From: a virus
Taxonomy: Duplodnaviria; Caudoviricetes
Length of the DNA: 64,000 nucleotides
Strand: one strand, 5' to 3'
Virus record (IMG/VR): IMGVR_UViG_3300012953_000012
Location: 141,565-205,564 of that record
In this document: piece by piece, positions 8,862-63,267 of the stretch
How positions within the stretch are numbered: the stretch's first letter is position 1
How the letters are laid out: every line of letters begins with the position of its first letter
Position numbers and translations under genes: made by a program
Notes under the pieces: generated by a model
The model's input: only the letters and a program-made list of their open reading frames with translations
Database searches by the model: none
What the model was told of the DNA's origin: nothing

Positions 8862-9880
8862 GTTGTCCGCTCCTTCGGTCCCGCTGCGAGGGTCCATCCG
8901 AACCTCCGATCTGCGATTCCGTTGTAGGGGGACACGCTGATGCAAACCTCGGCGTGTCCGGTGATGGACTCCATGGCATCGCTGCACATGGAGTGGATGG
9001 CTGTGGTGATGGGGTTGAACCCATCGGAAAGGTCGTCCGCCCCCCAGAGGGTGACGGTCCACATGGTGATCGTGGCCGCATCGTCGTGTGGCTTGCCTGC
9101 CACAGCGTTGATGTTGTGCGCCCGCAGGTAGTCGATGACGCCCTTCTGGACGACTCCTGTGAGGCTCACGCGGCCTTGTGTGGTCGAGAGAGCCTTGTAG
9201 GAGTACAACCGCCGTTGGTCGTCCGAGAGGTCCGCCAGGGTGGCCGTAGGGATCTGTGTGGCCTTGCGAAGCATGGGGAGAGACCCTGCCTCGTAGCCTT
9301 TCACGCCTGTCGGGATTGCAGGCAGCCCCTTCTTCGCGATCTCGATGGCGTACTCCACGTCCATGCCTTCCTTGGTTGCGTCGGCTTCGACCCGGTCCAT
9401 GATCTGGGCACAAGTGTCGGTGTGAGCGGAGACCTGGAGCCGCATTTCTTCGGCGACCTCCATGGAGGCGATCTCCAACTGCATCCCCAGGACCACAGGG
9501 TCCAGTGTGTCGGTCAGTACAGGGACCGCCGGGTGCCCTTCTTCAGGCAACAGCCCGGAACGCAACTCGGGAACGTCCCCGTCCAGGGACGCCCGTTCCG
9601 CGATGGCTGCCTCCATGAGAGGGTTCAGCATGGTCATGCCGTTGTCATGCGTCAGGGTGAGCGGGGCACCGTGCGCCTCCCGTGCTGCCTTCTCCATGCG
9701 GGTGGATGCGGCGACGAGAGCGTCCCCGTGGCCTGCCTGGAGAGCGAGTTCAGCCAACTTGGTCAGGGCCTCCTCGGGTGCCAGCCGACCTTCCTGGAGA
9801 GCCAGCAAGACCGGTGCGGCCCCTGGTGTATCTTCCAGGAGGCGTTGAACCTGAGCAACGATGTCGAGCACGTCCCTCAC
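8858..9880 (-). CDS. Hypothetical protein (about 340 aa)
   Basis: GTG start overlapping the upstream stop; strong codon bias. Confidence 0.7.
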   Translation of the reverse strand: MRDVLDIVAQVQRLLEDTPGAAPVLLALQEGRLAPEEALTKLAELALQAGHGDALVAASTRMEKAAREAHGAPLTLTHDNGMTMLNPLMEAAIAERASLDGDVPELRSGLLPEEGHPAVPVLTDTLDPVVLGMQLEIASMEVAEEMRLQVSAHTDTCAQIMDRVEADATKEGMDVEYAIEIAKKGLPAIPTGVKGYEAGSLPMLRKATQIPTATLADLSDDQRRLYSYKALSTTQGRVSLTGVVQKGVIDYLRAHNINAVAGKPHDDAATITMWTVTLWGADDLSDGFNPITTAIHSMCSDAMESITGHAEVCISVSPYNGIADRRFGWTLAAGPKERTT

Positions 9881-10059
9881 CCTTTCACCTGCGCCTGTGC
9901 CGCTGGGGGACGTGGGGGTGCGAACACCACGCGGATCGTGCCACACTTGTTGTTGCGTCTGACGCGGGTTTCGTACTGGTCTGGGACCGTTACACCACGC
10001 GCTCTGAGTGCTTGCCTTAGCAGACTGTCGATCTCGTCCTGTTCAAGTACGAGTTCCAT
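9877..10059 (-). CDS. Small hypothetical protein (MELVLEQDEID...)
   Basis: AGGAG RBS; coupled to the downstream gene. Confidence 0.6.
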   Translation of the reverse strand: MELVLEQDEIDSLLRQALRARGVTVPDQYETRVRRNNKCGTIRVVFAPPRPPAAQAQVKG

Positions 10060-10100
10060 GAGGGTTCTCCTGTGTGCCCCGGAAGTGGGGCATTGTGGGA

Positions 10101-11024
10101 CTATTTCTTCTTACTTGACCCGAATGTGATCTTACCCCCCACACCGATGACCCGTTCTTTTGGGGCTTCAGGTGCGGCCCACGGGTCAGGTTCCGGTGGG
10201 GGAGGTGGTCCGCCTCCGACCATGACCCCACCGGAAGGCATGTTCGTGTTGAAGGAGGGTCGTGGAGGCGTGGGAGCCTTGCGCTCGGGCCTGGTCGGGT
10301 GGGCGGCAGGCTTCTCAGGGATCATGTCGGCGGCGCGGGCACGCTTGATGGCGATGTCTCGTGCGTGCTTGCAGGGAACCTCTCGGGACGCACAAGTGCA
10401 TTCCCACTGACCGTCATGGTGAAGGGTGACCTCATAGATGACCCGCTTGCCCTTCGCGTCTTTTGAGTCTCCCTGGACACGCCAACGCCCGATGATCTCG
10501 TCGGGGGTTTCCTCTGGGACATCAGGGATTTCCTGGGACCCATCCACATGAGTAGGCTGCGGAGATGGATCTGGGGTCACTGTTGTGGGGTCTACGGGGT
10601 CATTGTCGGGGATCGGGTCCTCAGGTGGTTCCGGCTCTGGTTCCGGCTCCTTCTGAAAGCCCGAAGGGGCCACCATGCCCATCATCTCGGCTGCTGCTCG
10701 TCCAACGTCGGCGTCCGTGACGGGCTCCCAGTCCCCACGCTGGTCGCTGATCTCAATCGCCAACGCCTGTCGGAGCATGTCTGGGAAGTCGGGGAGGCCG
10801 AGGACCGTCGCCGTGTTCTCCGGGGCGAAGTCCGGGTTGTGAAGAAGGCGGTCCTCCTGGGTCAGGATCCGCTTGTTCCACTTGGTGCCTGCGCCCTTGC
10901 TGTTGCGACAGCCCACGTTCATGCACACGCCGCAAAACATCTGCTTGAACTGCTCAGGTGCGAGCAACTTGCGGTGCTCACCGTCGTAGCAGCCGTCGAA
11001 CAAGTCTGGGAGGGATTTACTCAT
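10101..11024 (-). CDS. SWIM zinc-finger protein with Pro/acidic linkers
   Basis: WECTCASREVPCKHA (SWIM CxCx(n)CxH); N-terminal CxxCxxxxC. Confidence 0.7.
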   Translation of the reverse strand: MSKSLPDLFDGCYDGEHRKLLAPEQFKQMFCGVCMNVGCRNSKGAGTKWNKRILTQEDRLLHNPDFAPENTATVLGLPDFPDMLRQALAIEISDQRGDWEPVTDADVGRAAAEMMGMVAPSGFQKEPEPEPEPPEDPIPDNDPVDPTTVTPDPSPQPTHVDGSQEIPDVPEETPDEIIGRWRVQGDSKDAKGKRVIYEVTLHHDGQWECTCASREVPCKHARDIAIKRARAADMIPEKPAAHPTRPERKAPTPPRPSFNTNMPSGGVMVGGGPPPPPEPDPWAAPEAPKERVIGVGGKITFGSSKKK

Positions 11025-11593
11025 GACTCCTTCTTCTTGCGGAACCAGATCTGGTCGGGGCTGGTGTAGGTGAGAGTCAACTCCGTGCCGGGGGTGACGT
11101 CCTTCGTCGCGAAGAAATCCATGTAGCGTCGGTCGGTGTCCGGTTCGATGTAGGGTTGGCACCTCATGTTGGCCTCTTTCCTGGGGGCGTGGTTGTAGAG
11201 CATCCCGTTGCCCAGCACCAACGCTCGGATCTCGTCCTTGCGCCACGGATGGACCATGTGCTTGAGTAGCACCCCGCCCCGCCCCACATAGGGATGCAGC
11301 ATGGTGCCTTGCAGCGTTCGCTCCAGAGGCATGTCAGGGGTGTCCAGGATGTAGGCGGCACAGCGTTCGACAAGCATCCCTTCCTGGAGAGGTGAGCGGC
11401 TGAAGACCCCCAACCCCTTCCCTGGAATGTGTTGGATGTACAAGCCTCCGCCGTAGTGGACCAGGCGGGCCTCTCGGGCCTCTCGGAGCGGGGATCCACA
11501 AAACTCGCAAAGAGGGTTGTGGTCGGCACCCCTTCTCTCAACGATCTCGTTGACGACCCCGCAGTGGGCGCATGGGATCTGGCTGACGTCCAT
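11021..11593 (-). CDS. SET-domain protein with N-terminal zinc ribbon
   Basis: GKGLGVFS, YNH, FFATKDVTPGTELTLTY SET motifs; CAHC...CEFC. Confidence 0.85.
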   Translation of the reverse strand: MDVSQIPCAHCGVVNEIVERRGADHNPLCEFCGSPLREAREARLVHYGGGLYIQHIPGKGLGVFSRSPLQEGMLVERCAAYILDTPDMPLERTLQGTMLHPYVGRGGVLLKHMVHPWRKDEIRALVLGNGMLYNHAPRKEANMRCQPYIEPDTDRRYMDFFATKDVTPGTELTLTYTSPDQIWFRKKKES

Positions 11594-11601
11594 CTCTACT
11601 C

Positions 11602-12099
11602 CTACGCTACGTTGAAGCCGCCACCCCGCACTACAACGACATGGCGGCCTTCCCGCCATGCAAACACTACCCGCTGGAAGACCTCGACAGCCTCCGTAGG
11701 AACGCCGTCAGACAGGGGCGGCTCGTAGCACTCAGGCGGCCCGTGCTTGAGTCTACGGCCCTTTCCCTTACTCCCCCCAGGTCGGCAGAGCGGTTCGTCC
11801 CAGGTCAGGCACGCCTTCCCGATCTTGCACACGCCTTCATCGGAGGCCACGCGCCTGGCGCTGGCTCGGGGGTCTCGCCCCAACTCCCGCACCAGAGGTA
11901 GAAAACGCCCGTGTAGGGCGTGTGATAGGGACTCGGCGGTGATCTCCTTGACCCCCGCTTCCCAGGTGGTCCCCCGGAGCGATTCAAGTACCCCCCAGTG
12001 GTCCGCGTCCTCGGGGACCTCCTCCACCAGGAGCAGCACCTTTTCGGCCTCCCGTCCGGGAAGGGGGGAGGGGTCGGTGAGGTCAAGGATTCTCACCAC
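11602..12099 (-). CDS. Hypothetical protein
   Basis: GGGAG RBS; part of an operon. Confidence 0.6.
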   Translation of the reverse strand: MVRILDLTDPSPLPGREAEKVLLLVEEVPEDADHWGVLESLRGTTWEAGVKEITAESLSHALHGRFLPLVRELGRDPRASARRVASDEGVCKIGKACLTWDEPLCRPGGSKGKGRRLKHGPPECYEPPLSDGVPTEAVEVFQRVVFAWREGRHVVVVRGGGFNVA

Positions 12100-12688
12100 T
12101 CCCCCCTACTTGTTTGAAGAAGCGACTGGCTCCCCCGGTGTCTCCGAACCGATGGCCGTCTCCGTCCATGGGGAACATGCCGGTCTTCCCGGCTTCGCGC
12201 TTTGCGGATCGGCTCGACCCCGCGCTGTGCATCCCTCCAGCAAGCGAATCAGCATCCAATCGAGCAACGGGGCAATCCGGCTCGCAGATCCAGTTGGCGA
12301 CAGTCTCCTTGCCTTCTGCGTCCCCATGCTCCACTTTGTTTTGAAGTCCTTCTGCTGTTCCGTAGACTCCGTGTTTCCCGAAGGCTCCTGTGCTTCCCGG
12401 CTTCATGCCCCCAGTAATAGCCTTCACCCTCTTGACCCCACCACACCGACAACCTTCAAGGTGCTGGAGGATCACGTTGGCGGGCCATCTTCCTTTCGAG
12501 GTCGTAGCGACATAGGCGGGTCGCTCCTTTCGCCCAAACCCGCTCCAAACCTCCAGTCGGTTGATGGGTATCCGATCCGACCCGACCCGAGAGGCGTCGA
12601 TGTTGATCCCCCCCGTCCCATGACGGAGGGTGTTGGCTGCGACGGTCCCTTCGGACAAGGGCTTCCGTAGGACGTGGATCATCCTCAT
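12083..12688 (-). CDS. Stand-alone middle/insert module of an N6/N4 DNA methyltransferase, copy B
   Basis: RKPLSEGTVAANTLRHGTGGINIDASRV, GRWPANV, DTGGASRFFK; no DPPY or FxGxG. Confidence 0.75.
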   Translation of the reverse strand: MRMIHVLRKPLSEGTVAANTLRHGTGGINIDASRVGSDRIPINRLEVWSGFGRKERPAYVATTSKGRWPANVILQHLEGCRCGGVKRVKAITGGMKPGSTGAFGKHGVYGTAEGLQNKVEHGDAEGKETVANWICEPDCPVARLDADSLAGGMHSAGSSRSAKREAGKTGMFPMDGDGHRFGDTGGASRFFKQVGGSGENP

Positions 12689-13293
12689 TGTCGCCCCTTC
12701 ACCCAGCACGCTCGACAGCGGGCCTCGTACATCCCCGTCGAGCCGACCTGCACCTGCTCCCCGGAGTCTTGATCAGGCAACCGGAACGAACGAGTGGCAG
12801 GCTTGCCACACACCTCGTCCCACTTCCACTGACCCCCCACGGTTCGTGTTCTTGTGGTCCCGTGTACGCATACGGCAGTCAGTTTGGTCACCTTGTCGGC
12901 CACCGCGAGAAGTCGTGCCATCGGCCCGAACGGCTGACCATCAGAGTCGAGATCAAGCCCCGCGACGATGACCCGGCGACCTCTGTTTGCTTCTGACTCC
13001 AGCACGTCCACGATCTCGTCGTCAAGGAACTGCACCTCGTCCACTCCGATGACCTTCCCTGTCATGTAGAAGGGCTGTGTTCGGAGAAGGCGTTTGACGT
13101 GATCCACGTCCTTGACGGCGACCGCTTCCAGTGTGCCCCCAACGTGGGTCGCCAGCGAATCCTTGGAGTAGCGGTCGTCAATCGCGGGCTTCATCACAAG
13201 GGTGAACTGGTCCGCGATCTGGCACCGACGCAGACGCCGGATCAACTCCTCTGACTTGCCGCTGTACATGCAGCCTGTGATGGCCTCAAGCAT
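12685..13293 (-). CDS. tdk: Thymidine kinase
   Basis: GCMYSGKSEEL (Walker A), VIGVDEVQF, GLDLDSDGQPFG, KLTAVC, YEARCRAC. Confidence 0.92.
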   Translation of the reverse strand: MLEAITGCMYSGKSEELIRRLRRCQIADQFTLVMKPAIDDRYSKDSLATHVGGTLEAVAVKDVDHVKRLLRTQPFYMTGKVIGVDEVQFLDDEIVDVLESEANRGRRVIVAGLDLDSDGQPFGPMARLLAVADKVTKLTAVCVHGTTRTRTVGGQWKWDEVCGKPATRSFRLPDQDSGEQVQVGSTGMYEARCRACWVKGRQ

Positions 13294-13963
13294 CCTCCTT
13301 CCCTCCGATCTGTTTGTAGAAGCGTGAGGCTCCTCCTGTGTCTCCAAAACCGGGGTCTCCCCGCACCTCATCTGCGGACAATGCCTGACCCAGTCCGTTG
13401 CCCCCGCCGTAGATCGTAGAGGTGGTGGAGATGTTGGCGGTGCGCCCGCCTGTGCTCTTGGTCACACCGCTCTGCTCATCCAATCGTGCGACAGGACAGC
13501 CGGATTCACAGATCCAGTTGGCTACCGTCTCCTTGCCGTCCTTGTCCGTGTGATTGAAGTAGGGGCGGTTCTGCTTCTCGGCAAAGCCGCCGTGCGCTGT
13601 AATGGGGGCGGCATGTCGGTGGGGTTTCGTCCCTCCAGTGATCCCCTTCACCTTCTTGACCCCAGCACGCCTACACCCGTCGAGGTGCTGGAGGACCACG
13701 TTCGCGGGCCACCTGCCGAGTTTCTGTGCGTCCGAAGGCACATAGGACGATCCCGCTGCGTACATGCCAGGGCCGTCACCGATGCCTGTCCTGTCAGCCA
13801 TCAGGTTGTCCTTCCCTCGACGCACGACGCCTGTGACAACGTGCGAGCCGTCACTGGAGATGCGGGATGCGTCGATATTCAACCCGCCCGTGCCGTGCTT
13901 CAAGGTGTTCGCGGCCACGGTGCCTTCGGAGAGAGGCTTACGGAGGACGTGGATCATCCTCAT
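13286..13963 (-). CDS. Stand-alone middle/insert module of an N6/N4 DNA methyltransferase, copy A
   Basis: RKPLSEGTVAANTLKHGTGGLNIDASRI, GRWPANV, DTGGASRFYK; paralog of 12083-12688. Confidence 0.75.
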   Translation of the reverse strand: MRMIHVLRKPLSEGTVAANTLKHGTGGLNIDASRISSDGSHVVTGVVRRGKDNLMADRTGIGDGPGMYAAGSSYVPSDAQKLGRWPANVVLQHLDGCRRAGVKKVKGITGGTKPHRHAAPITAHGGFAEKQNRPYFNHTDKDGKETVANWICESGCPVARLDEQSGVTKSTGGRTANISTTSTIYGGGNGLGQALSADEVRGDPGFGDTGGASRFYKQIGGKEDA

Positions 13964-14562
13964 TCCGGCTTCCTCCCCACACAAACCGGTTCCCACGAAG
14001 GTTTCAAAGCGGTTCCCCACCCATCCCAGCGTTGAGCCTTTTCAACAAGAGGGACGTGGTGCCTCTCCCCGCTCTCTTTCATGAAAGATCCCGGTCCCGC
14101 ACCAAAACCTTGGCCTCTGTCCAGCGCACCCCTTTTCCCTTCAGTCTTTTGGGTTTTGTAGCGACCGTGATTCGGGCTTGTGGGATCAGGCCCCCCGTGG
14201 GGAACCCCACGCGCCGCCTTGTCCAGAGCCTTGCCGATGTTCATGCTCTTGGGGAAGCCTGAGCCGTAGTTCCACGACTCGATCCGAAGGTCGGTGAACC
14301 CGGCCTCGGCCATAGCCGCAGCCATCCGATGATAGGTGCGAGTACCGGAGAACGCCTTGATGACCCCACCGGGTCGGAGCACTCGGTACACTTCGTCCCA
14401 GAGGTCGGCTGAGAAGGCGATGCCTGCGCCCTCGGCATCCCACGTCTTGCCCATGAACGAGATGTGGTACGGAGGGTCGCAGATGAACGCTCCAACGAAG
14501 CCTTCCTCGTATTCACCGAGGACTTCCACACAGTCACCGTGTCGTAGAGTCAGCCACTGCAT
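13960..14562 (-). CDS. Catalytic (DPPY) N-terminal module of a beta-class DNA methyltransferase
   Basis: GDC..., DPPY, LRPGG, GSGFPKS, GWGTALKPSWEP; ends before any SAM-binding motif. Confidence 0.8.
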   Translation of the reverse strand: MQWLTLRHGDCVEVLGEYEEGFVGAFICDPPYHISFMGKTWDAEGAGIAFSADLWDEVYRVLRPGGVIKAFSGTRTYHRMAAAMAEAGFTDLRIESWNYGSGFPKSMNIGKALDKAARGVPHGGPDPTSPNHGRYKTQKTEGKRGALDRGQGFGAGPGSFMKESGERHHVPLVEKAQRWDGWGTALKPSWEPVCVGRKPE

Positions 14563-14570
14563 CGTGCCCC

Positions 14571-15395
14571 CTACAGTCCGAACAGGTCGTCGAGAGAAAT
14601 GGTCTCGGGCTCGGCTTCGCGTGCCTCGGTGATCTCAGTGAGGTCGGAAGACACTTCGGCAGCGTTCCATCCAGCATCACGGGTGTTCCAGTACCGGACC
14701 CGGCCCTCGGCGATGGTCAGGTACTCCTTCTCCCGTTCGATGCCGATGAAGTCGTGCCCTGTCTGGACACAGGCGATGCCCGTAGTCCCGCTGCCCATGA
14801 ACGGGTCCACCACAGGACCTACGTCCTTCGGCACATCGTGGAGCAGCCGTGCCATGACGGCGTAGGGCTTCACGGTGGGGTGGACGTTGCGGCGCTTCTT
14901 CACCCGGTTCAGGCCGATGTCCTGACCTCCAGGTGCCTCGACATCCTCGCCTTCCTCGGTCGATGCGATGGCCCCCTGTGCGCCCCCGGACATGCCGAAG
15001 ACCTTGAGGGGTAGGTGGTCCAGTCCGGCCTCACGTTCCTTGCGGGCGGCTTTGGCGACGTAGTGCATCTGGTCGGTCGTGCTGTCGGCCACCATGATGC
15101 AGTCGCGGACCTCAAAGCCAGTGTCCTCAGCGAAGCAGGCTCCGGTGTGTCCCGTGGGTTCAGCGGGGTCGTTGGCGAGCATCAGGTGTCCGCCCGGCTT
15201 CAAAGCCCGATGGGCCTCGGTGATCTCGTCGAGGGAGTCCAGAGAAGACTCCAGCACGATGCCGTGAACGCTCTCGTCCTCGTGCTGGGACCAGTCGTAG
15301 CCTTTGGTGGCGTAGACGAACACACCCTCGACCCCCTGGGGGTCACCGGGCGTGATCATGTCACGCAGGTAGTCAATCAGTTCGGGGTTCATCAC
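14571..15395 (-). CDS. SAM-binding module of a beta-class DNA methyltransferase, with degenerate catalytic motif
   Basis: HPTVKP, VDPFMGSGTTG, FIGIERE; the DPPY position reads IVLESSL; C-terminus SLDDLFGL. Confidence 0.8.
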   Translation of the reverse strand: MMNPELIDYLRDMITPGDPQGVEGVFVYATKGYDWSQHEDESVHGIVLESSLDSLDEITEAHRALKPGGHLMLANDPAEPTGHTGACFAEDTGFEVRDCIMVADSTTDQMHYVAKAARKEREAGLDHLPLKVFGMSGGAQGAIASTEEGEDVEAPGGQDIGLNRVKKRRNVHPTVKPYAVMARLLHDVPKDVGPVVDPFMGSGTTGIACVQTGHDFIGIEREKEYLTIAEGRVRYWNTRDAGWNAAEVSSDLTEITEAREAEPETISLDDLFGL

Positions 15396-15541
15396 GGGCA
15401 GGTCCTCGGGTCACGGAGTGGGCAATAAGCACGACGGAGAGTGCCCACACGCAGGCCAATGTACCCACAACCTCCGCGACCCTACGGGTGCGTCGGAAGC
15501 GTCGGGGGCGCTTGGTTTTCATGGTCATAGAAGGGAGTACC

Positions 15542-15558
15542 CGTTGGTCTGTCTATGG
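15542..15558 (+). promoter_or_regulatory. Late-class motif variant CGTTGG-N5-CTATGG
   Basis: Upstream of topoisomerase IB; one deviation from consensus. Confidence 0.5.
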
Positions 15559-15593
15559 TGACCCCCCATCGTAGACGACGAAGGAACACCCCG

Positions 15594-17045
15594 ATGCCCC
15601 GCTACCCAGCACCACAGGTCCAGTACAAGAAGGACGAACGAGCACGAGCGAAGCACATCGCGGCGGCTCGACGCGACTTCCGAGCCCTGTTGAAGGCGGT
15701 GGCACCGGACGCGGCGAAGATCAAGGCGCTCCACAAGCGAGATCAAAACAAGCAGAAGCGTGCGTTGGTCAAGAGCCTCAAGGGGCGGGGCGACGTGCGT
15801 GCATTTCTCGACAAGTACATGGGCACCGAGTCGGCGAGTCCGAAGGCGTACTCGTGGCGAAACACGGGGCAGTATCTGGTCCGGGACGCGGCGCTTGGGA
15901 TCAAGAGCCTCCGGGATGTCCTGCCTGCACTGGACAAGGTGACGAGCAACGGCTTCCAGGCATTGACCGTCGAGGAGTTTCAAGCACCCCTGCGGTCTAC
16001 GATCCCAGCCCTGCTGCGGGAGTACCTGCCCCAGACGGTCGAGGTCAACGTAGACGAGAACGGGACCATCCAGCGGGTCACGGACAGGTTCAACAACGAG
16101 TACAAGACCCTGGCAGTCAAGATCGCCCACCAGAAGGCGCTCCTGAAGAAGTACAACGCCATCGCCAAGCGGGTGAAGCGGGACCTCAAGTCCTCGGACG
16201 AGATCACCCGGCTCTCGGCGCTGATCACATCGATCCTCATGGAGACCGGCATCCGACCCGGCAAGCGAGGCAACGGCGTGGTCAAGACCATCGGCGACAA
16301 GGAAGAGTTCATCGAAACCTTCGGAGCCGTGACCCTGGGGCCTGGGCACGTCAACTTCGTCCGGGACAACTTCGTGGAGTTGAGTTTCCTGGGCAAGATG
16401 ACCGGCCAGAACACGGCCACGCTGTCCGACCGGGTGATCATCAAGGCGCTCCAGGACTATGTGAACAACGCCCTCAAGTCGGGGAGCAAGTACGTCTTCG
16501 TGGCCGACGATGGCTACGAGTACACATACAACGACCTGTACAAGTACTTCCAGAAGCACTTCAAGGGGATTGACCCCACGGACTGGCGCAAACTCAAAGC
16601 CTCCGAGACCGTGTTCGATGCCATCCAGGAAGAACAGGAAGCCCTGTACAGCAGGATTCTGGCCTTCGCAGACAGCGAGGGTGATGATCTCATGGACCGG
16701 GTGACCGAAGAGATCGCAGCGACGTTGGACCGAGCCATCGCCAAAGCCCAGGTCGCCCTGTCTCACGACAAGGCCACGACGACGAAGAAGCAGTACATCA
16801 ACCCAGAGGTACTGCTTCGGTTCCTGAGCACCGCGACGATGGGAGGCGCGACGTTCCGCGATGCCATCCTCGCAGGGAAGCCGACGTTGGCGTTTGACCC
16901 GCAACGGTTCATCGAGGTCGCCAGCGCAGCAGCCGTAGGCAAGAGAGCCAGCCGCCGTCTGCTCCTCGCCGGGGGTGCGGCCATGACCTTGGAAGAGATG
17001 CTGGACGTGCTGGCGGACTCACTGATGATTGAAGGGGAGAGGTAG
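15594..17045 (+). CDS. DNA topoisomerase IB
   Basis: ETGIRPG (R), LSFLGK (K), DWRK (R), LSH (H), KKQYINP (catalytic Y); AAGGAA RBS. Confidence 0.85.
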   Translation: MPRYPAPQVQYKKDERARAKHIAAARRDFRALLKAVAPDAAKIKALHKRDQNKQKRALVKSLKGRGDVRAFLDKYMGTESASPKAYSWRNTGQYLVRDAALGIKSLRDVLPALDKVTSNGFQALTVEEFQAPLRSTIPALLREYLPQTVEVNVDENGTIQRVTDRFNNEYKTLAVKIAHQKALLKKYNAIAKRVKRDLKSSDEITRLSALITSILMETGIRPGKRGNGVVKTIGDKEEFIETFGAVTLGPGHVNFVRDNFVELSFLGKMTGQNTATLSDRVIIKALQDYVNNALKSGSKYVFVADDGYEYTYNDLYKYFQKHFKGIDPTDWRKLKASETVFDAIQEEQEALYSRILAFADSEGDDLMDRVTEEIAATLDRAIAKAQVALSHDKATTTKKQYINPEVLLRFLSTATMGGATFRDAILAGKPTLAFDPQRFIEVASAAAVGKRASRRLLLAGGAAMTLEEMLDVLADSLMIEGER

Positions 17046-42635: not shown

Positions 42636-43637
42636 CTATTGACCCCCTACCGAGGAACAGCCCCTTAAGAGAGCCGCCTCACATGCTACCCACGGAGCGG
42701 GAACACCCCTCAACACGCCCCTGTCTACATGAGCAAGATCACGGACGAGGTTCACAAGATTTCTTGTGCCCCACTTTTTCGCGGCGGGGATTGTCGTGCG
42801 CTCCGTTACCCAGGAGGGTGACCCCAGCATGGCACCGATCTGATGAGGGGTGGTGCCACGCTCCAGGAGCAGGGATGCCTGGAGCCATCGGTAGGCGAGG
42901 TCTGCCGGGCCACCGCGTGCTCGGAGGAGGAGCATCGTCGGGTCAGTCACCGACTTACGGCGTAGGGTCACAAGGGCTTTGGCCATCTTCGCCGTGTGCC
43001 TCGACGCGAGAGCATCCCGAACGGGCTGCATGTCTACGCCGATGTGGCCCTTCACAACAGCCTTGACCTCAGCCGAGGTGATCTGCTTGCCGCCTTGCGA
43101 CCGGACCAAAGCCGTGATCTTGCTCATCTCGTAGGAGAGGACACCGAGGTCCACGCCCATGACGCCGACCATGGCTTTCGCCAGGTCAGTGCTGAGAGCC
43201 TGCTGGTTGAGGGTGAGTCGATGTGCCTCCATGACGAGGAACTTGACGGCCCGCCCCTCCCTGTCCTGTTTCCGGGCAGGGATGCAGTAGGTGACTGTGT
43301 GTTTCTTCTTCACCAGGGCGACCGCTGGATGCTTCTTCGGGTCTGCGTTGCCCTCCACCTCCATGAGGATGCACACCCGCCCAGGCTTGTCGGCCTCGTG
43401 GGCACTCACAGTCTCGGGATCAACCTTTCCGCCTGGCACCAGGATCAACGTCGGCTGCCCGAAGGTAGTGCCCATGGAGAGCGCGTCGATGACCTCACCG
43501 TCTGACCCGGCATGGACAACCTCGTAGCCTGCCTGGTACGCGCCCATCATGGCGTGACGTAGCCATCGACGGCACAGGAACCGCTCGTCCCCGGTCACGG
43601 CCAGCACGGGAGGGGGTTTGTCCCACGAGAGTTTCAC
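42636..43637 (-). CDS. holA: Clamp-loader delta-like subunit
   Basis: LAVTGDERFL N-terminus, LGVLSYEMSK helix; size and neighbour consistent. Confidence 0.7.
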   Translation of the reverse strand: MKLSWDKPPPVLAVTGDERFLCRRWLRHAMMGAYQAGYEVVHAGSDGEVIDALSMGTTFGQPTLILVPGGKVDPETVSAHEADKPGRVCILMEVEGNADPKKHPAVALVKKKHTVTYCIPARKQDREGRAVKFLVMEAHRLTLNQQALSTDLAKAMVGVMGVDLGVLSYEMSKITALVRSQGGKQITSAEVKAVVKGHIGVDMQPVRDALASRHTAKMAKALVTLRRKSVTDPTMLLLRARGGPADLAYRWLQASLLLERGTTPHQIGAMLGSPSWVTERTTIPAAKKWGTRNLVNLVRDLAHVDRGVLRGVPAPWVACEAALLRGCSSVGGQ

Positions 43638-44221
43638 GGCTTCCTTCCCACGATGACAGGCTCCCACGAAGGCTTCAAGGCGGTGCCCCACCCATCCCAC
43701 CTCTGTGCCTCGGGGGTGGCTGGAGCGGTAAGAAGACCTGGTTCGGAGGTGTACTGGTACTTCGACGCATCTCGATCCCCCGCGAAACCGTGCGTCCCTG
43801 TGCGTTTACCTTCTCCATGGTAGTTGGGGTCTCTCCCGATCACCTCACGCTTGGCCCCCGCAGCCTTGTCGAACGCCTTGCCGATGTTCATCGACTTGGG
43901 GAACCCGCTTCCGTAGTTCCATGAGTCCACCTGAAGGTCGATGAACCCTGCCTGCTCCATCGCGTAAGCCATGTGATGGAAGGTCCGCGTCCCGGAGAAT
44001 GCCTTGATGACCCCGCCGGGCCGGAGGACCCGAAAGGCTTCCGTGACCCATGCTTCATGCCACTTTCGCTGGGCCGCGCCTTCCCCCAACTTGTCAAAGT
44101 CCTTCCCCATGAAGGACAGGCCATAGGGAGGGTCGGAGACCACAGCCCCGATGGAACCGTCTTCGTAGCCTTTGAGCACATCCACGCAGTCCCCGTGTCG
44201 CAGGATCAATCTCTGGGTCAT
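43634..44221 (-). CDS. Second catalytic (DPPY) N-terminal DNA methyltransferase module
   Basis: GDC, SDPPY, LRPGG, GSGFPKS, GWGTALKPSWEP; ends RKP*; coupled to both neighbours. Confidence 0.8.
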   Translation of the reverse strand: MTQRLILRHGDCVDVLKGYEDGSIGAVVSDPPYGLSFMGKDFDKLGEGAAQRKWHEAWVTEAFRVLRPGGVIKAFSGTRTFHHMAYAMEQAGFIDLQVDSWNYGSGFPKSMNIGKAFDKAAGAKREVIGRDPNYHGEGKRTGTHGFAGDRDASKYQYTSEPGLLTAPATPEAQRWDGWGTALKPSWEPVIVGRKP

Positions 44222-44835
44222 TCCATCGCCTCCAGGAGTGCCGTAGCGGCACACAGGTGTGACCCCCTGCCGTCCAGCAGAGGGCGCACATGGTTCCAGA
44301 CAGCAGCGGTTTCCCGGCTGCCCAGGTCAGGGTGTTCCTCCACGATAAACTCGCAGAAGCCGTGAAGTAGGGCGGGCCAGTCGCGCTGGCTGGCGTGGAT
44401 CACCGATAGGCATGTCGCCACGTCTTTCTTGGACCAGGCCCTGTAGAGAGCACGGGCGTTGTCATCCATGAACGGAGAGGTCCAGCGTTCGTCGGGCGGA
44501 CACCAGCGGTCCAGGGTCCTGGAGCGGATGGTGCCGATGACCCCACCGTAGAAGTCGGCCCACAGGAGGATCCTGACAGGGCCGTCTGCGAGGTCTTCAA
44601 GGGTCTTCAACAGGCCGTCCACCGCTTCTGGGGTCGCCCGGTCCAGGGGGCCTACGACCAGGACGGGGGGTCTGTCTCCCACGCCAGCGTTCCCAGCAAG
44701 GCGGACAATCTCACGCGAGTCATCCACCTTCAGTCCGGTGTCCCCGATAGGCTCCCCGAGCAGACGCCCCAGACTACGGGCGTGGGCAACCGCTTCGCCT
44801 CGCGCAAGGGGGCCGTGAAACAACAAAGGGGTCAT
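44218..44835 (-). CDS. holB: Clamp-loader delta-prime-like subunit
   Basis: LLFHGP (degenerate Walker A), AVDGLLKTLED, GTIRSR. Confidence 0.75.
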   Translation of the reverse strand: MTPLLFHGPLARGEAVAHARSLGRLLGEPIGDTGLKVDDSREIVRLAGNAGVGDRPPVLVVGPLDRATPEAVDGLLKTLEDLADGPVRILLWADFYGGVIGTIRSRTLDRWCPPDERWTSPFMDDNARALYRAWSKKDVATCLSVIHASQRDWPALLHGFCEFIVEEHPDLGSRETAAVWNHVRPLLDGRGSHLCAATALLEAME

Positions 44836-61904: not shown

Positions 61905-62306
61905 ATGCCTTCCAATCGAGTCCGCCTCTACCACTACTTCCTCACCCAGGGGAAGACCGGCTCTACCGACGAGGAGGCCGAGGACGCTCTCGACCTCCCT
62001 CACCAGACGGTGAGTGCTGTGCGGGGTGAACTGGTCAAGGCGGGAGCCGTGGTGGGCACGGACCTGTGCCGTTGGACGCGCAGCGGCAAGAAGGCCACCG
62101 TGCGGGTCGGGGTTCCCGACGTGGACGTGTCCCGTCGTCTGCCTACAACCGTGGTCGAGGAGAAGCAGCGGTGGATCCGTGCCCAGATCCGCAACGTGAA
62201 CGAGTCCGTCCTGGACGACATCATCGACACGATCCAGGAGGCACAGAAGCCGCCTGGTCACACCGAGCAGTTGACCATCATGGACCTGTTTGGCGAACAG
62301 GCGTGA
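61905..62306 (+). CDS. Winged-helix protein (paralog 2)
   Basis: GSTDEEA...RGELVKAGAV...RWTRSG. Confidence 0.7.
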   Translation: MPSNRVRLYHYFLTQGKTGSTDEEAEDALDLPHQTVSAVRGELVKAGAVVGTDLCRWTRSGKKATVRVGVPDVDVSRRLPTTVVEEKQRWIRAQIRNVNESVLDDIIDTIQEAQKPPGHTEQLTIMDLFGEQA

Positions 62307-62313
62307 GCGAAGC

Positions 62314-63267
62314 ATGGACTGGTTCGATGCCCTGACCGACGACACCCCTACCTACGCTCCCTTCACTGTGGCCCCCTTCTCTCTGGTGGATGCCAGGAAA
62401 GGGCCGTGGAAGGCGCGGAAGAAGTGGTGGTTGGCCAAAGGAATCCGAGGGGAGTTGGGTCGTGACACGGCTCTCCTTCCCGGCACATCCACGATTGGGC
62501 CTGCCACTGTCTACGGAGTGTCGGCTGGGAGTGGGGAGCGTGGTGAGTACACCACGTCCGTGTTTGACCCGGTGCTGTGCGAGGTCCTGTACAACTGGTT
62601 TTGCCCTCCAGGAGGCCATGTCCTCGACCCCTTCGCGGGGGGTGCTGTGCGAGGTGTGGTGGCTTCTGTCACCGGGCGTACCTACACAGGCGTGGACCTC
62701 AGTCAGAGGCAGGTCGTGTCCAACCGGAACCTGGCGGCCAGCCTCGATACGCCGGGGGTTCGCTGGGAGGTTGGAGACTCGTCGGAGGTCCAGTCCCTGG
62801 TGGACGGCCCCTTCGACTTCCTCTTTTCCTGTCCGCCCTACTGGAACCTGGAGAAATACTCGGATGACCCCAGGGACCTTTCGACGCTGACCTACGAGGG
62901 GTTCCTCGACAAGTACCGGAAGATCATCAGCGCGTCTGCTGCCCTTCTCGACGATGACGCTTTCGCTTGCTTCGTTGTGGGGGATGTTCGGGAGCGGGGC
63001 TCCAACGGGGCCTACGTCGGCTTCGTTGCCGACACCATCAAAGCCTTTCAAGAGGCGGGCCTTCCCCTCTACAACGACATCCTCTACGTCTACCCGGACG
63101 GGAGCCTGCCTATGAGGGCGGGTCGGAGTCTGCGTGCTACGCGCAAGATCTCCAAGACGCACCAGAACGTGCTGGTGTTTTTGAAGGGTGACGCCAGGAG
63201 AGCGACAGCCCGGATGGGGGTCACCGTTCCCATCCGTCCCGGTATTACAGGGGAGGAGGCACCATGA
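62314..63267 (+). CDS. Amino (N6/N4) DNA methyltransferase, motif I before motif IV
   Basis: VLDPFAGGAVRG, YTGVDL, FSCPPY, KISKTHQNVLVF. Confidence 0.85.
   Translation: MDWFDALTDDTPTYAPFTVAPFSLVDARKGPWKARKKWWLAKGIRGELGRDTALLPGTSTIGPATVYGVSAGSGERGEYTTSVFDPVLCEVLYNWFCPPGGHVLDPFAGGAVRGVVASVTGRTYTGVDLSQRQVVSNRNLAASLDTPGVRWEVGDSSEVQSLVDGPFDFLFSCPPYWNLEKYSDDPRDLSTLTYEGFLDKYRKIISASAALLDDDAFACFVVGDVRERGSNGAYVGFVADTIKAFQEAGLPLYNDILYVYPDGSLPMRAGRSLRATRKISKTHQNVLVFLKGDARRATARMGVTVPIRPGITGEEAP

Follow-up and report, generated by a model that had tools for sequence, protein, structure and literature searches.

Is a DNA methyltransferase whose parts are spread over several neighbouring genes a broken enzyme, or one that is built from separate proteins? 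The question is raised by a 64,000-nucleotide (nt) stretch of a virus of the Caudoviricetes (hereafter the window), which comprises positions 141,565 to 205,564 of IMG/VR record IMGVR_UViG_3300012953_000012 and is the last 64 kb of a 205.5-kb record with a completeness of 46% by CheckV. DNA methyltransferases are textbook examples of single-chain or simple homodimeric enzymes, and the few natural split methyltransferases known to us are isolated two-piece C5 enzymes. In the window, different parts of a beta-class enzyme are found in adjacent open reading frames (ORFs). Based on sequence conservation and a predicted complex, we propose, with a probability of roughly 0.7, that these form a conserved multi-subunit split beta-class N6-adenine methyltransferase of an uncultured marine giant-phage clade, which would assemble in trans and methylate DNA. 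The methylated base is inferred to be N6-adenine from the DPPY motif (PMC7544214).

The pieces lie in a group of five co-directional, tightly packed genes on the minus strand. ORF1 (14571-15395; 274 amino acids (aa)), which we call the hub subunit, is followed after an 8-nt gap by ORF2 (13960-14562; 200 aa), a catalytic half. The stop codon of ORF2 overlaps the start codon of ORF3 (13286-13963; 225 aa), the first middle module, within an ATGA. The end of ORF3 overlaps by 8 nt a thymidine kinase gene (12685-13293; 202 aa; PF00265, E 4e-42; phrog_592), which in turn is joined by an ATGA overlap to ORF5 (12083-12688; 201 aa), a second middle module. The kinase, although placed between both middle modules, is not a methyltransferase part. 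No terminator-like sites were seen on this strand inside the cluster, and a promoter scan of 9800-16000, which addressed the sigma-70 type and not other phage promoter types, gave no match. A second catalytic half, ORF2' (43634-44221, minus strand; 195 aa), also carries DPPY, and a third middle module lies outside the window in the same record (G000:C1:64395-65030, plus strand). ORF1 is present in a single copy. We define a kit as an ORF1-like hub without DPPY, lone DPPY halves ending in GRKP and lone middle modules starting M-x-x-I/V-H-V/L-L-R-K-P, all in one genome. The sequence-only reading of this DNA had described three separately encoded modules, translationally coupled or closely spaced, at 14571-15395, 13960-14562 and 13286-13963. 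Its coordinates, motifs and junctions all hold when the reading frames are checked, including the ATGA overlap and the 8-nt gap, and the three pieces are as claimed, but the kit is larger, with one hub, two catalytic halves and at least three middle modules in this 46%-complete record.

The same reading had taken the family to be normally one polypeptide, and on this point nearly all of 80 IMG/VR loci agree, having the order DPPY...RKPL...GRWPAN...GGASRFF...HPTxKP...DPFxGSG in a single chain, as does a 533-aa protein of the huge phage LR745208.1 with all parts in order. In none of the kit genes are motif IV, (D/S)PP(Y/F), and motif I, FxGxG, carried on a single chain with the order IV...target recognition domain (TRD)...I. 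Among them, DPPY occurs only in ORF2 and ORF2' and FxGSG only in ORF1; all catalytic and S-adenosylmethionine (SAM)-binding motifs are present and conserved across the gene set, not per piece. In the 485-kb phage LR745208.1 we also observed, upstream of the single-chain methyltransferase gene, a DNA polymerase-like gene (L085:21-3233) with apparent intein-like insertions, LAGLIDADG-like segments and a C-terminal HN followed by S/T.

Residues 108-274 of ORF1 correspond to the C-terminal part of a beta-class methyltransferase, with HYVAKAARKER, HPTVKP (residues 172-177, positions 14865-14882), motif I as DPFMGSGTTG (residues 197-206, positions 14778-14807) and FIGIE. The match to PF01555 (72.1 bits, cut-off 26.7) covers only profile positions 148-220, the C-terminal third, and that to phrog_3008 covers positions 143-213. 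Residues 1-107 are a conserved, diverged and catalytically eroded copy of the catalytic half. At the motif IV position ORF1 reads IVLESSL, with ESSL (15240-15251) in place of DPPY, and residues 22-123 of the ORF1 family align to residues 9-123 of the catalytic half (hhalign probability 92.9%, E 3.8e-7), where ESSL is paired with DPPY. Full-length homologues of ORF1 number more than 100, with identities of 43-90%. DPPY was found in none of 30 aligned ORF1-like proteins (46-90% identity) and is absent from the majority consensus of a 59-row alignment. HPTVKP and FxGSG are kept by all ORF1-like proteins examined, the invariant columns of the family being N170, H172, P173, T174, K176, F199, G201, S202 and G203, and the stretch RVLKPGGHLML...EPTGHTGAC.AED.GFEVRD of the eroded half is among its best-conserved blocks. 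These alignments point to an old, conserved state of the eroded half, not a fresh decay of the DPPY region. Hence the earlier description of ORF1 as a SAM module that has lost DPPY is correct as to ESSL at motif IV but incomplete, since an eroded N-terminal half is conserved throughout the family. Predicted alone, ORF1 gives a predicted local distance difference test score (pLDDT) of 86.1 and a predicted template modelling (TM) score of 0.60. In a Foldseek search of the PDB the model aligns along most of its length with CcrM, M1.HpyAVI, M.BceJIV and M.RsrI at TM scores of 0.21-0.26, low values which we read as two well-formed parts that would not close into one Rossmann domain in the lone chain, and not as a new fold.

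ORF2 comprises motifs IV-VIII, with DPPY at residues 29-32 (positions 14467-14478) and GWGTALKP, and its C-terminus is VGRKPE. It matches phrog_6025, a family of N-terminal halves, and aligns with positions 4-89 of PF01555, the N-terminal part, at 26.5 bits, just below the cut-off of 26.7. ORF2' ends in VGRKP, a boundary identical to that of ORF2. Stand-alone catalytic halves are abundant in metagenomes, where 2461 proteins of 110-350 aa were found at E<=1e-5. Among the best 120 cluster representatives, DPPY is kept in 119 and the C-terminus lies 0-3 residues past GRKP in about 113. The invariant columns are D29, P30, P31 and Y32 together with T184-P188. One related contig (L095:4530-6004; ENA contig k141_77980) has an in-frame TGA exactly after DPPYG in two of its three catalytic-half paralogues, with the body resuming in the +1 frame (tac ggt tga g ttg agt) or the -1 frame (tac ggc tga cta); these may represent pseudogenes, sites of recoding, or scars left by recombination at the conserved DPPY codons.

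The middle modules are less readily recognised. ORF3 and ORF5 are without a match to any Pfam family, Methylase_S (HsdS) included, and match the first 83 positions of phrog_3008. ORF3 starts with MRMIHVLRKPL and ends in GGASRFYKQIGGKEDA. Its conserved blocks are residues 1-35 (MRMIHVLRKPL..GTGGLNIDASR), 81-105 (GRWPAN..H..C), 141-170 (ETVANWICESGCPVARLDEQSG) and 205-220 (GDTGGASRFY), and between them lie three variable segments (36-80, 106-140 and 171-204) of low identity with many gaps. A megablast search of the region against 50,697 phage records gave no match and a pattern-based search of IMG/VR with ORF3 gave no confirmed relative, whereas phmmer against 1.84 billion representatives returned 6988 hits at E<=1e-3. 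Of the top 150 representatives (50% clusters), about 100 are stand-alone proteins of 195-235 aa that align from first to last residue. In 68 stand-alone modules the columns R8, K9, G26, R34, R84, P86, N88, H93, C97, G101, C152, C156 and R214 are invariant, and the His-Cys-Cys-Cys set among them is probably a zinc site. The AlphaFold2 model of ORF3 has a pLDDT of 63.6 overall and of 82-92 around the Cys/His core. Its only matches in the AlphaFold database are to middle parts of other PF01555 methylases, with no independent DNA-binding fold, for which reason we claim no named fold; searching the PDB sequences with ORF3 yielded nothing beyond chance matches (E >0.5). The variable segments most likely read DNA, as judged from their position, since the module corresponds to the part of beta-class enzymes that lies between motif VIII and motif X.

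Paralogues within the record provide a measure of the age of the split. The pairs ORF3/ORF5 and ORF2/ORF2' have the same termini within each pair. ORF3 and ORF5 share 58% aa identity with a ratio of nonsynonymous to synonymous substitution rates (dN/dS) of 0.25, and ORF2 and ORF2' share 61% with a dN/dS of 0.24; dS is saturated in both cases. Since diverged paralogues at saturated dS have the same termini, the split is older than the duplication, and the dN/dS of around 0.25 implies purifying selection on the pieces since then. The first 21 residues of ORF3 and ORF5 are identical; recent gene conversion of the N-termini was considered and rejected, as the first 102 nt, which encode almost the same peptide, are only 78% identical. 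We then compared 36 stand-alone halves, taken from every second row of their alignment, with the N-terminal regions of single-chain relatives from 30 of the 80 loci in an unrooted tree. The two groups fall on opposite sides of one branch with 100/100 support, which fits one old split followed by radiation among the sampled forms.

Five related contigs, of which L095 and L096 were entered via ORF1 homologues and L101, L102 and L103 via DPPY halves, show how the pieces are kept together. An ORF1-like gene or fusion adjoins a DPPY half in all five. L096, L101 and L103 share the gene order of the window, with hub and half ahead of any middle module. Within 5 kb, L096 carries four such modules, all of which begin MRV[IV]H[VL]LRKPLSEGTVA; L101 has two, and L103 has none nearby. 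In L095 and L102 the half is instead followed, through a 4-nt overlap, by a middle module fused to the N-terminus of an ORF1-like body (449 and 422 aa, respectively). The fusion restores the classical half-middle-SAM order, the eroded half being an insertion that separates GGASRFF from HYVAKA, and provides Rosetta-stone evidence that middle module and hub act together. The full kit is found in the record of the window, L096 and L101, and a fused two-piece form in L095 and L102.

We modelled the complex of ORF1, ORF3 and ORF2 as three chains with custom alignments, ORF2 being the scored partner, in three runs and three controls. The score was 0.86 in all three runs in comparison to 0.28 for the best control. 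Of 80 solved complexes, 58 attained the mark used for this score, as did 2 of 110 mismatched pairs; these counts are rough because the alignments differed. The runs share at least 74% of contacts and the partner pLDDT is at least 68. In the model, ORF1 194-197 (beta-1, before DPFMGSG) pairs with ORF2 23-26 (beta-4, before DPPY), ORF1 215-219 (FIGIE) pairs with ORF2 3-7, and a helix of the eroded half (ORF1 81-87) packs on ORF2 77-82. ORF3 86-88 (the PAN of GRWPAN) and 29-30 touch ORF2 186 and 182 in GWGTALKP, and all 27 modelled interface residues of ORF3 fall within conserved blocks. The prediction therefore has the normal junction of SAM pocket and motif IV rebuilt from two chains, with the eroded half beside the beta-4 slot.

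The proposed mechanism is as follows. The catalytic Rossmann domain would be rebuilt in trans, ORF2 or ORF2' supplying strands beta-4 to beta-7 and motif IV, and the C-terminal part of ORF1 contributing the SAM pocket, made up of HPTVKP, motif I and strands beta-1 to beta-3. The eroded half of ORF1 would pack beside the catalytic half and not in the beta-4 slot, and might take the place of the second protomer on which beta-class enzymes normally depend. A middle module (ORF3, ORF5 or the third copy) would dock via its conserved blocks on the GWGTALKP hairpin of the half, leaving its three variable segments free, most likely to read DNA. In this way one hub gene could serve several catalytic halves and middle modules, and with several partners for one hub the phage could mark its DNA at several motifs and so escape host restriction.

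Collectively these data support the main proposal of the sequence-only reading, a heteromeric methyltransferase in place of a decaying one. The breakpoints are shared among relatives and not random (about 113 of 120 halves ending near GRKP, and the five contigs), dN/dS between diverged paralogues is near 0.25 and not near 1, and in the multimer prediction the DPPY half contacts both the SAM subunit and the middle module (0.86 against 0.28), although memory of single-chain structures may contribute to that result. Binding and methylation themselves are predictions.

A comparison with L101, a 258-kb Tara Oceans scaffold of nearly the same phage as the window, bears on the role of the separate parts. 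At the protein level, topoisomerase IB is 96.7% identical, ORF1 96.0%, a 165-aa downstream gene 97.6%, a SET-domain gene 94.7% and the next gene (381 aa) 91.9%. The catalytic half is only 58.9% identical, middle modules 1 and 2 are 58.2% and 55.1% identical, and the thymidine kinase is 69.0% identical. DNA-level alignment places this divergence in an island (12142-14468, minus strand) which shows only patches of 77-82% nt identity between flanks of 89.5% (21144-14468) and 94.1% (12142-6000). One edge of the island lies directly after the DPPY codons of ORF2 and the other at the GGASRFF codons of ORF5. A conserved hub with replaced plug-in parts is the pattern expected of specificity parts in an arms race; on the other hand, because the kinase lies inside the island, a plain recombination patch explains it equally well.

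From the number of paralogues, the variable loops and the divergent island we infer that the specificity subunits may be exchangeable. A stronger version, which we put forward tentatively and hold to be less likely than not, is that any half and any zinc-bearing module could work on the one hub (2 x 3 or more combinations), giving a combinatorial, multi-specific methyltransferase whose cassette is swapped between near-identical strains in an arms race with host restriction, and whose eroded half and gene order would be a living permutation intermediate. We consider it somewhat unlikely, though deserving of weight, that the split enzyme works while the extra halves and modules are redundant, differently timed or partly inactive, with one target motif or none. 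Such redundancy would suit the placement of ORF2' and the third middle module in replication operons away from the hub, the unrelated kinase within the island, the prediction of DNA recognition by the variable segments from sequence alone, and a middle-module fold that is poorly predicted and without a solved relative. It sits less well with the paralogues of one genome, which keep the docking blocks and differ by indels and sequence in the same three segments, with module numbers that vary from 1 to 4 or more between close relatives, and with a hub 96% conserved where the modules are 55-59% identical, the pattern expected of specificity parts.

Several observations weigh against the split enzyme as we propose it. 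The middle-module model is poor (pLDDT 63.6), so that the DNA-reading role and the zinc site are drawn from conservation alone. That the predicted interface coincides with conserved blocks cannot count as independent evidence, given that the confidence of a model tracks conservation, and the score of the complex may reflect memory of solved single-chain beta-class enzymes in the model. The catalytic-half homologue carried within ORF1 could in principle fill the beta-4 slot itself, excluding ORF2. L103 has no middle module near its hub and half, two of the three catalytic halves of L095 are interrupted after DPPYG, and the island, in including the 69% identical kinase, may be a recombination patch and not a result of selection on specificity.

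We find it improbable that the pieces are conserved but do not methylate together, with ORF1 a dead SAM-binding protein (a regulator or SAM sink) and the halves and modules acting in DNA binding or anti-restriction. The ORF1 family lacks motif IV throughout, the DPPY half and the middle module have no recognisable SAM-binding motif, and halves and modules are also found far from the hub, all of which would be in keeping with such roles. However, DPPY, GWGTALKP, HPTVKP and FxGSG are invariant or nearly so, which is hard to explain without catalysis, the fusions and fixed adjacency link the three families, and the model rebuilds a normal beta-1/beta-4 junction.

Our data show that the split pieces are not a decayed gene. 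That they are functionless remnants of decayed or rearranged methyltransferase genes is very improbable, even though no single ORF has the complete motif set, the gene order is permuted and two L095 halves have frame breaks, since every ORF is intact, hundreds of diverged clusters have identical boundaries, the paralogues show a dN/dS of about 0.25 with dS saturated, ORF1 and its Tara counterpart share 96% aa identity where the DNA shares 89.5%, and the split forms, all found to the same side of one 100/100 branch, have diversified since. Least credible of all is joining of the pieces into one polypeptide by frameshifting at the ATGA overlaps (ORF2/ORF3 and kinase/ORF5) or by protein trans-splicing, for which inteins in related huge phages might be cited, because the hub-first gene order precludes simple read-through, fusion would duplicate the RKP strand present on both sides of the cut, Pfam shows no intein in any piece, and translation in the ORF3 frame ahead of the ATG would do away with GTALKPSWEP, which is invariant in ORF2, on which ground an ORF2-ORF3 recoding product was rejected.

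The split methyltransferase as we propose it is most closely related to single-chain phage beta-class enzymes (PF01555, phrog_67 type), such as the LR745208.1 protein and gp94 of Mycobacterium phage Tomaszewski. These are 38-49% identical to the pieces and share with them DPPY, GWGTALKP, RKPL, GTGxLNID, GRWPxN, the Cys/His set, GGASRFF, YVAKAS..ER, HPTVKP and DPFxGSG. They differ in being one polypeptide of about 350-540 aa with one middle domain each, in having no eroded second half between GGASRFF and YVAKA, and in lying across the 100/100 branch from the split forms. As phrog_6025 (the N-terminal half, 192 positions) and phrog_3008 (RKPL to DPFxGSG, 244 positions) show, versions in two pieces, divided likewise at RKPL, are already present in catalogues of cultured phages. 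The latter joins middle and SAM parts without an eroded half, both are annotated only as 'DNA methyltransferase', and we found no study of either in the literature.

Other systems resemble the kit in part. M.AquI and M.EcoHK31I are natural two-subunit C5-cytosine methyltransferases for which both polypeptides are needed, according to the summary in PMC3404938. They likewise have one methyltransferase fold encoded in separate polypeptides, but belong to the C5 class, consist of two pieces and not three, are single cases and not a large family, and have neither a shared hub with alternative partners nor an eroded duplicate half. Beta-class enzymes are thought to act only as dimers, some paired with a partner eroded in motif IV (MettL14, MTA9), and in the ciliate MTA1-MTA9 enzyme DNA binding comes from the separate proteins p1 and p2 (PMC7544214). 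MettL3-MettL14 and MTA1-MTA9 resemble the kit in combining an active DPPY/DPPW unit with a homologous unit whose motif IV is eroded. Each of those partners is a complete fold, whereas in the phage the active fold itself is cut in two and the eroded half is fused to a SAM-binding part with intact motif I. By analogy we speculate that the eroded half of the hub might be the remnant of an eroded dimer partner of the MettL14/MTA9 kind, and, again as speculation, that the order hub (C-terminal part)-half-middle could be a stage passed through in a Jeltsch-type permutation by duplication and loss. The likeness to Type I HsdM/HsdS is one of logic only, a separate, exchangeable and often duplicated specificity subunit on a common methylase (PMC3874165); the sequences are unrelated, HsdM is a whole enzyme of the gamma class, and the kit is without a restriction subunit. 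None of the systems compared brings together an active fold divided over two chains, a third, separately encoded middle part, a hub bearing an eroded duplicate half, and multiple alternative partners. In a literature search of incomplete coverage we came across no report of a split beta-class amino-methyltransferase whose middle modules are separate proteins.

Some neighbouring genes are also of note. The methyltransferase cluster is flanked by a eukaryotic-type topoisomerase IB (15555-17045, plus strand; PF01028, E 3.5e-13) and a SET-domain protein (11021-11659, minus strand; PF00856, E 7.9e-8), both of which keep the same positions in L096, L101 and L103, and a thymidine kinase is always near methyltransferase parts in L095, L096, L101, L102 and L103. 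The lone methyltransferase parts are inserted in replication operons with stop and start codons overlapping on either side. ORF2' sits among clamp-loader-like genes (43634-44254), joined by ATGA and GTGA overlaps to a DNA_pol3_delta2-like gene on one side and to the next gene on the other, and the third middle module lies between a DnaB-like helicase gene (TAATG overlap) and a primase-like gene, an arrangement that resembles small mobile genes between essential phage genes. The window also encodes a separate single-chain amino-methyltransferase (62290-63267, plus strand; 325 aa; PF01555, 39.7 bits), whose motif order is unlike that of the split enzyme, motif I (DPFAGG) preceding SCPPY; its SPPY makes an N4-cytosine enzyme possible.

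In conclusion, a giant-phage clade keeps a probable amino-methyltransferase that is cut at two fixed points and has one hub with several alternative partners. For annotation, this means that proteins of about 200 aa listed as 'hypothetical' in metagenomes, of which there are hundreds, would be parts of such a split enzyme. If assembled as modelled, the enzyme would provide compact protection of phage DNA at many motifs. It would further be a natural case of fragment complementation with exchangeable recognition parts, relevant to tools for targeted methylation, and a test case both for the circular permutation of methyltransferase classes and for the need of beta-class enzymes for a second protomer.

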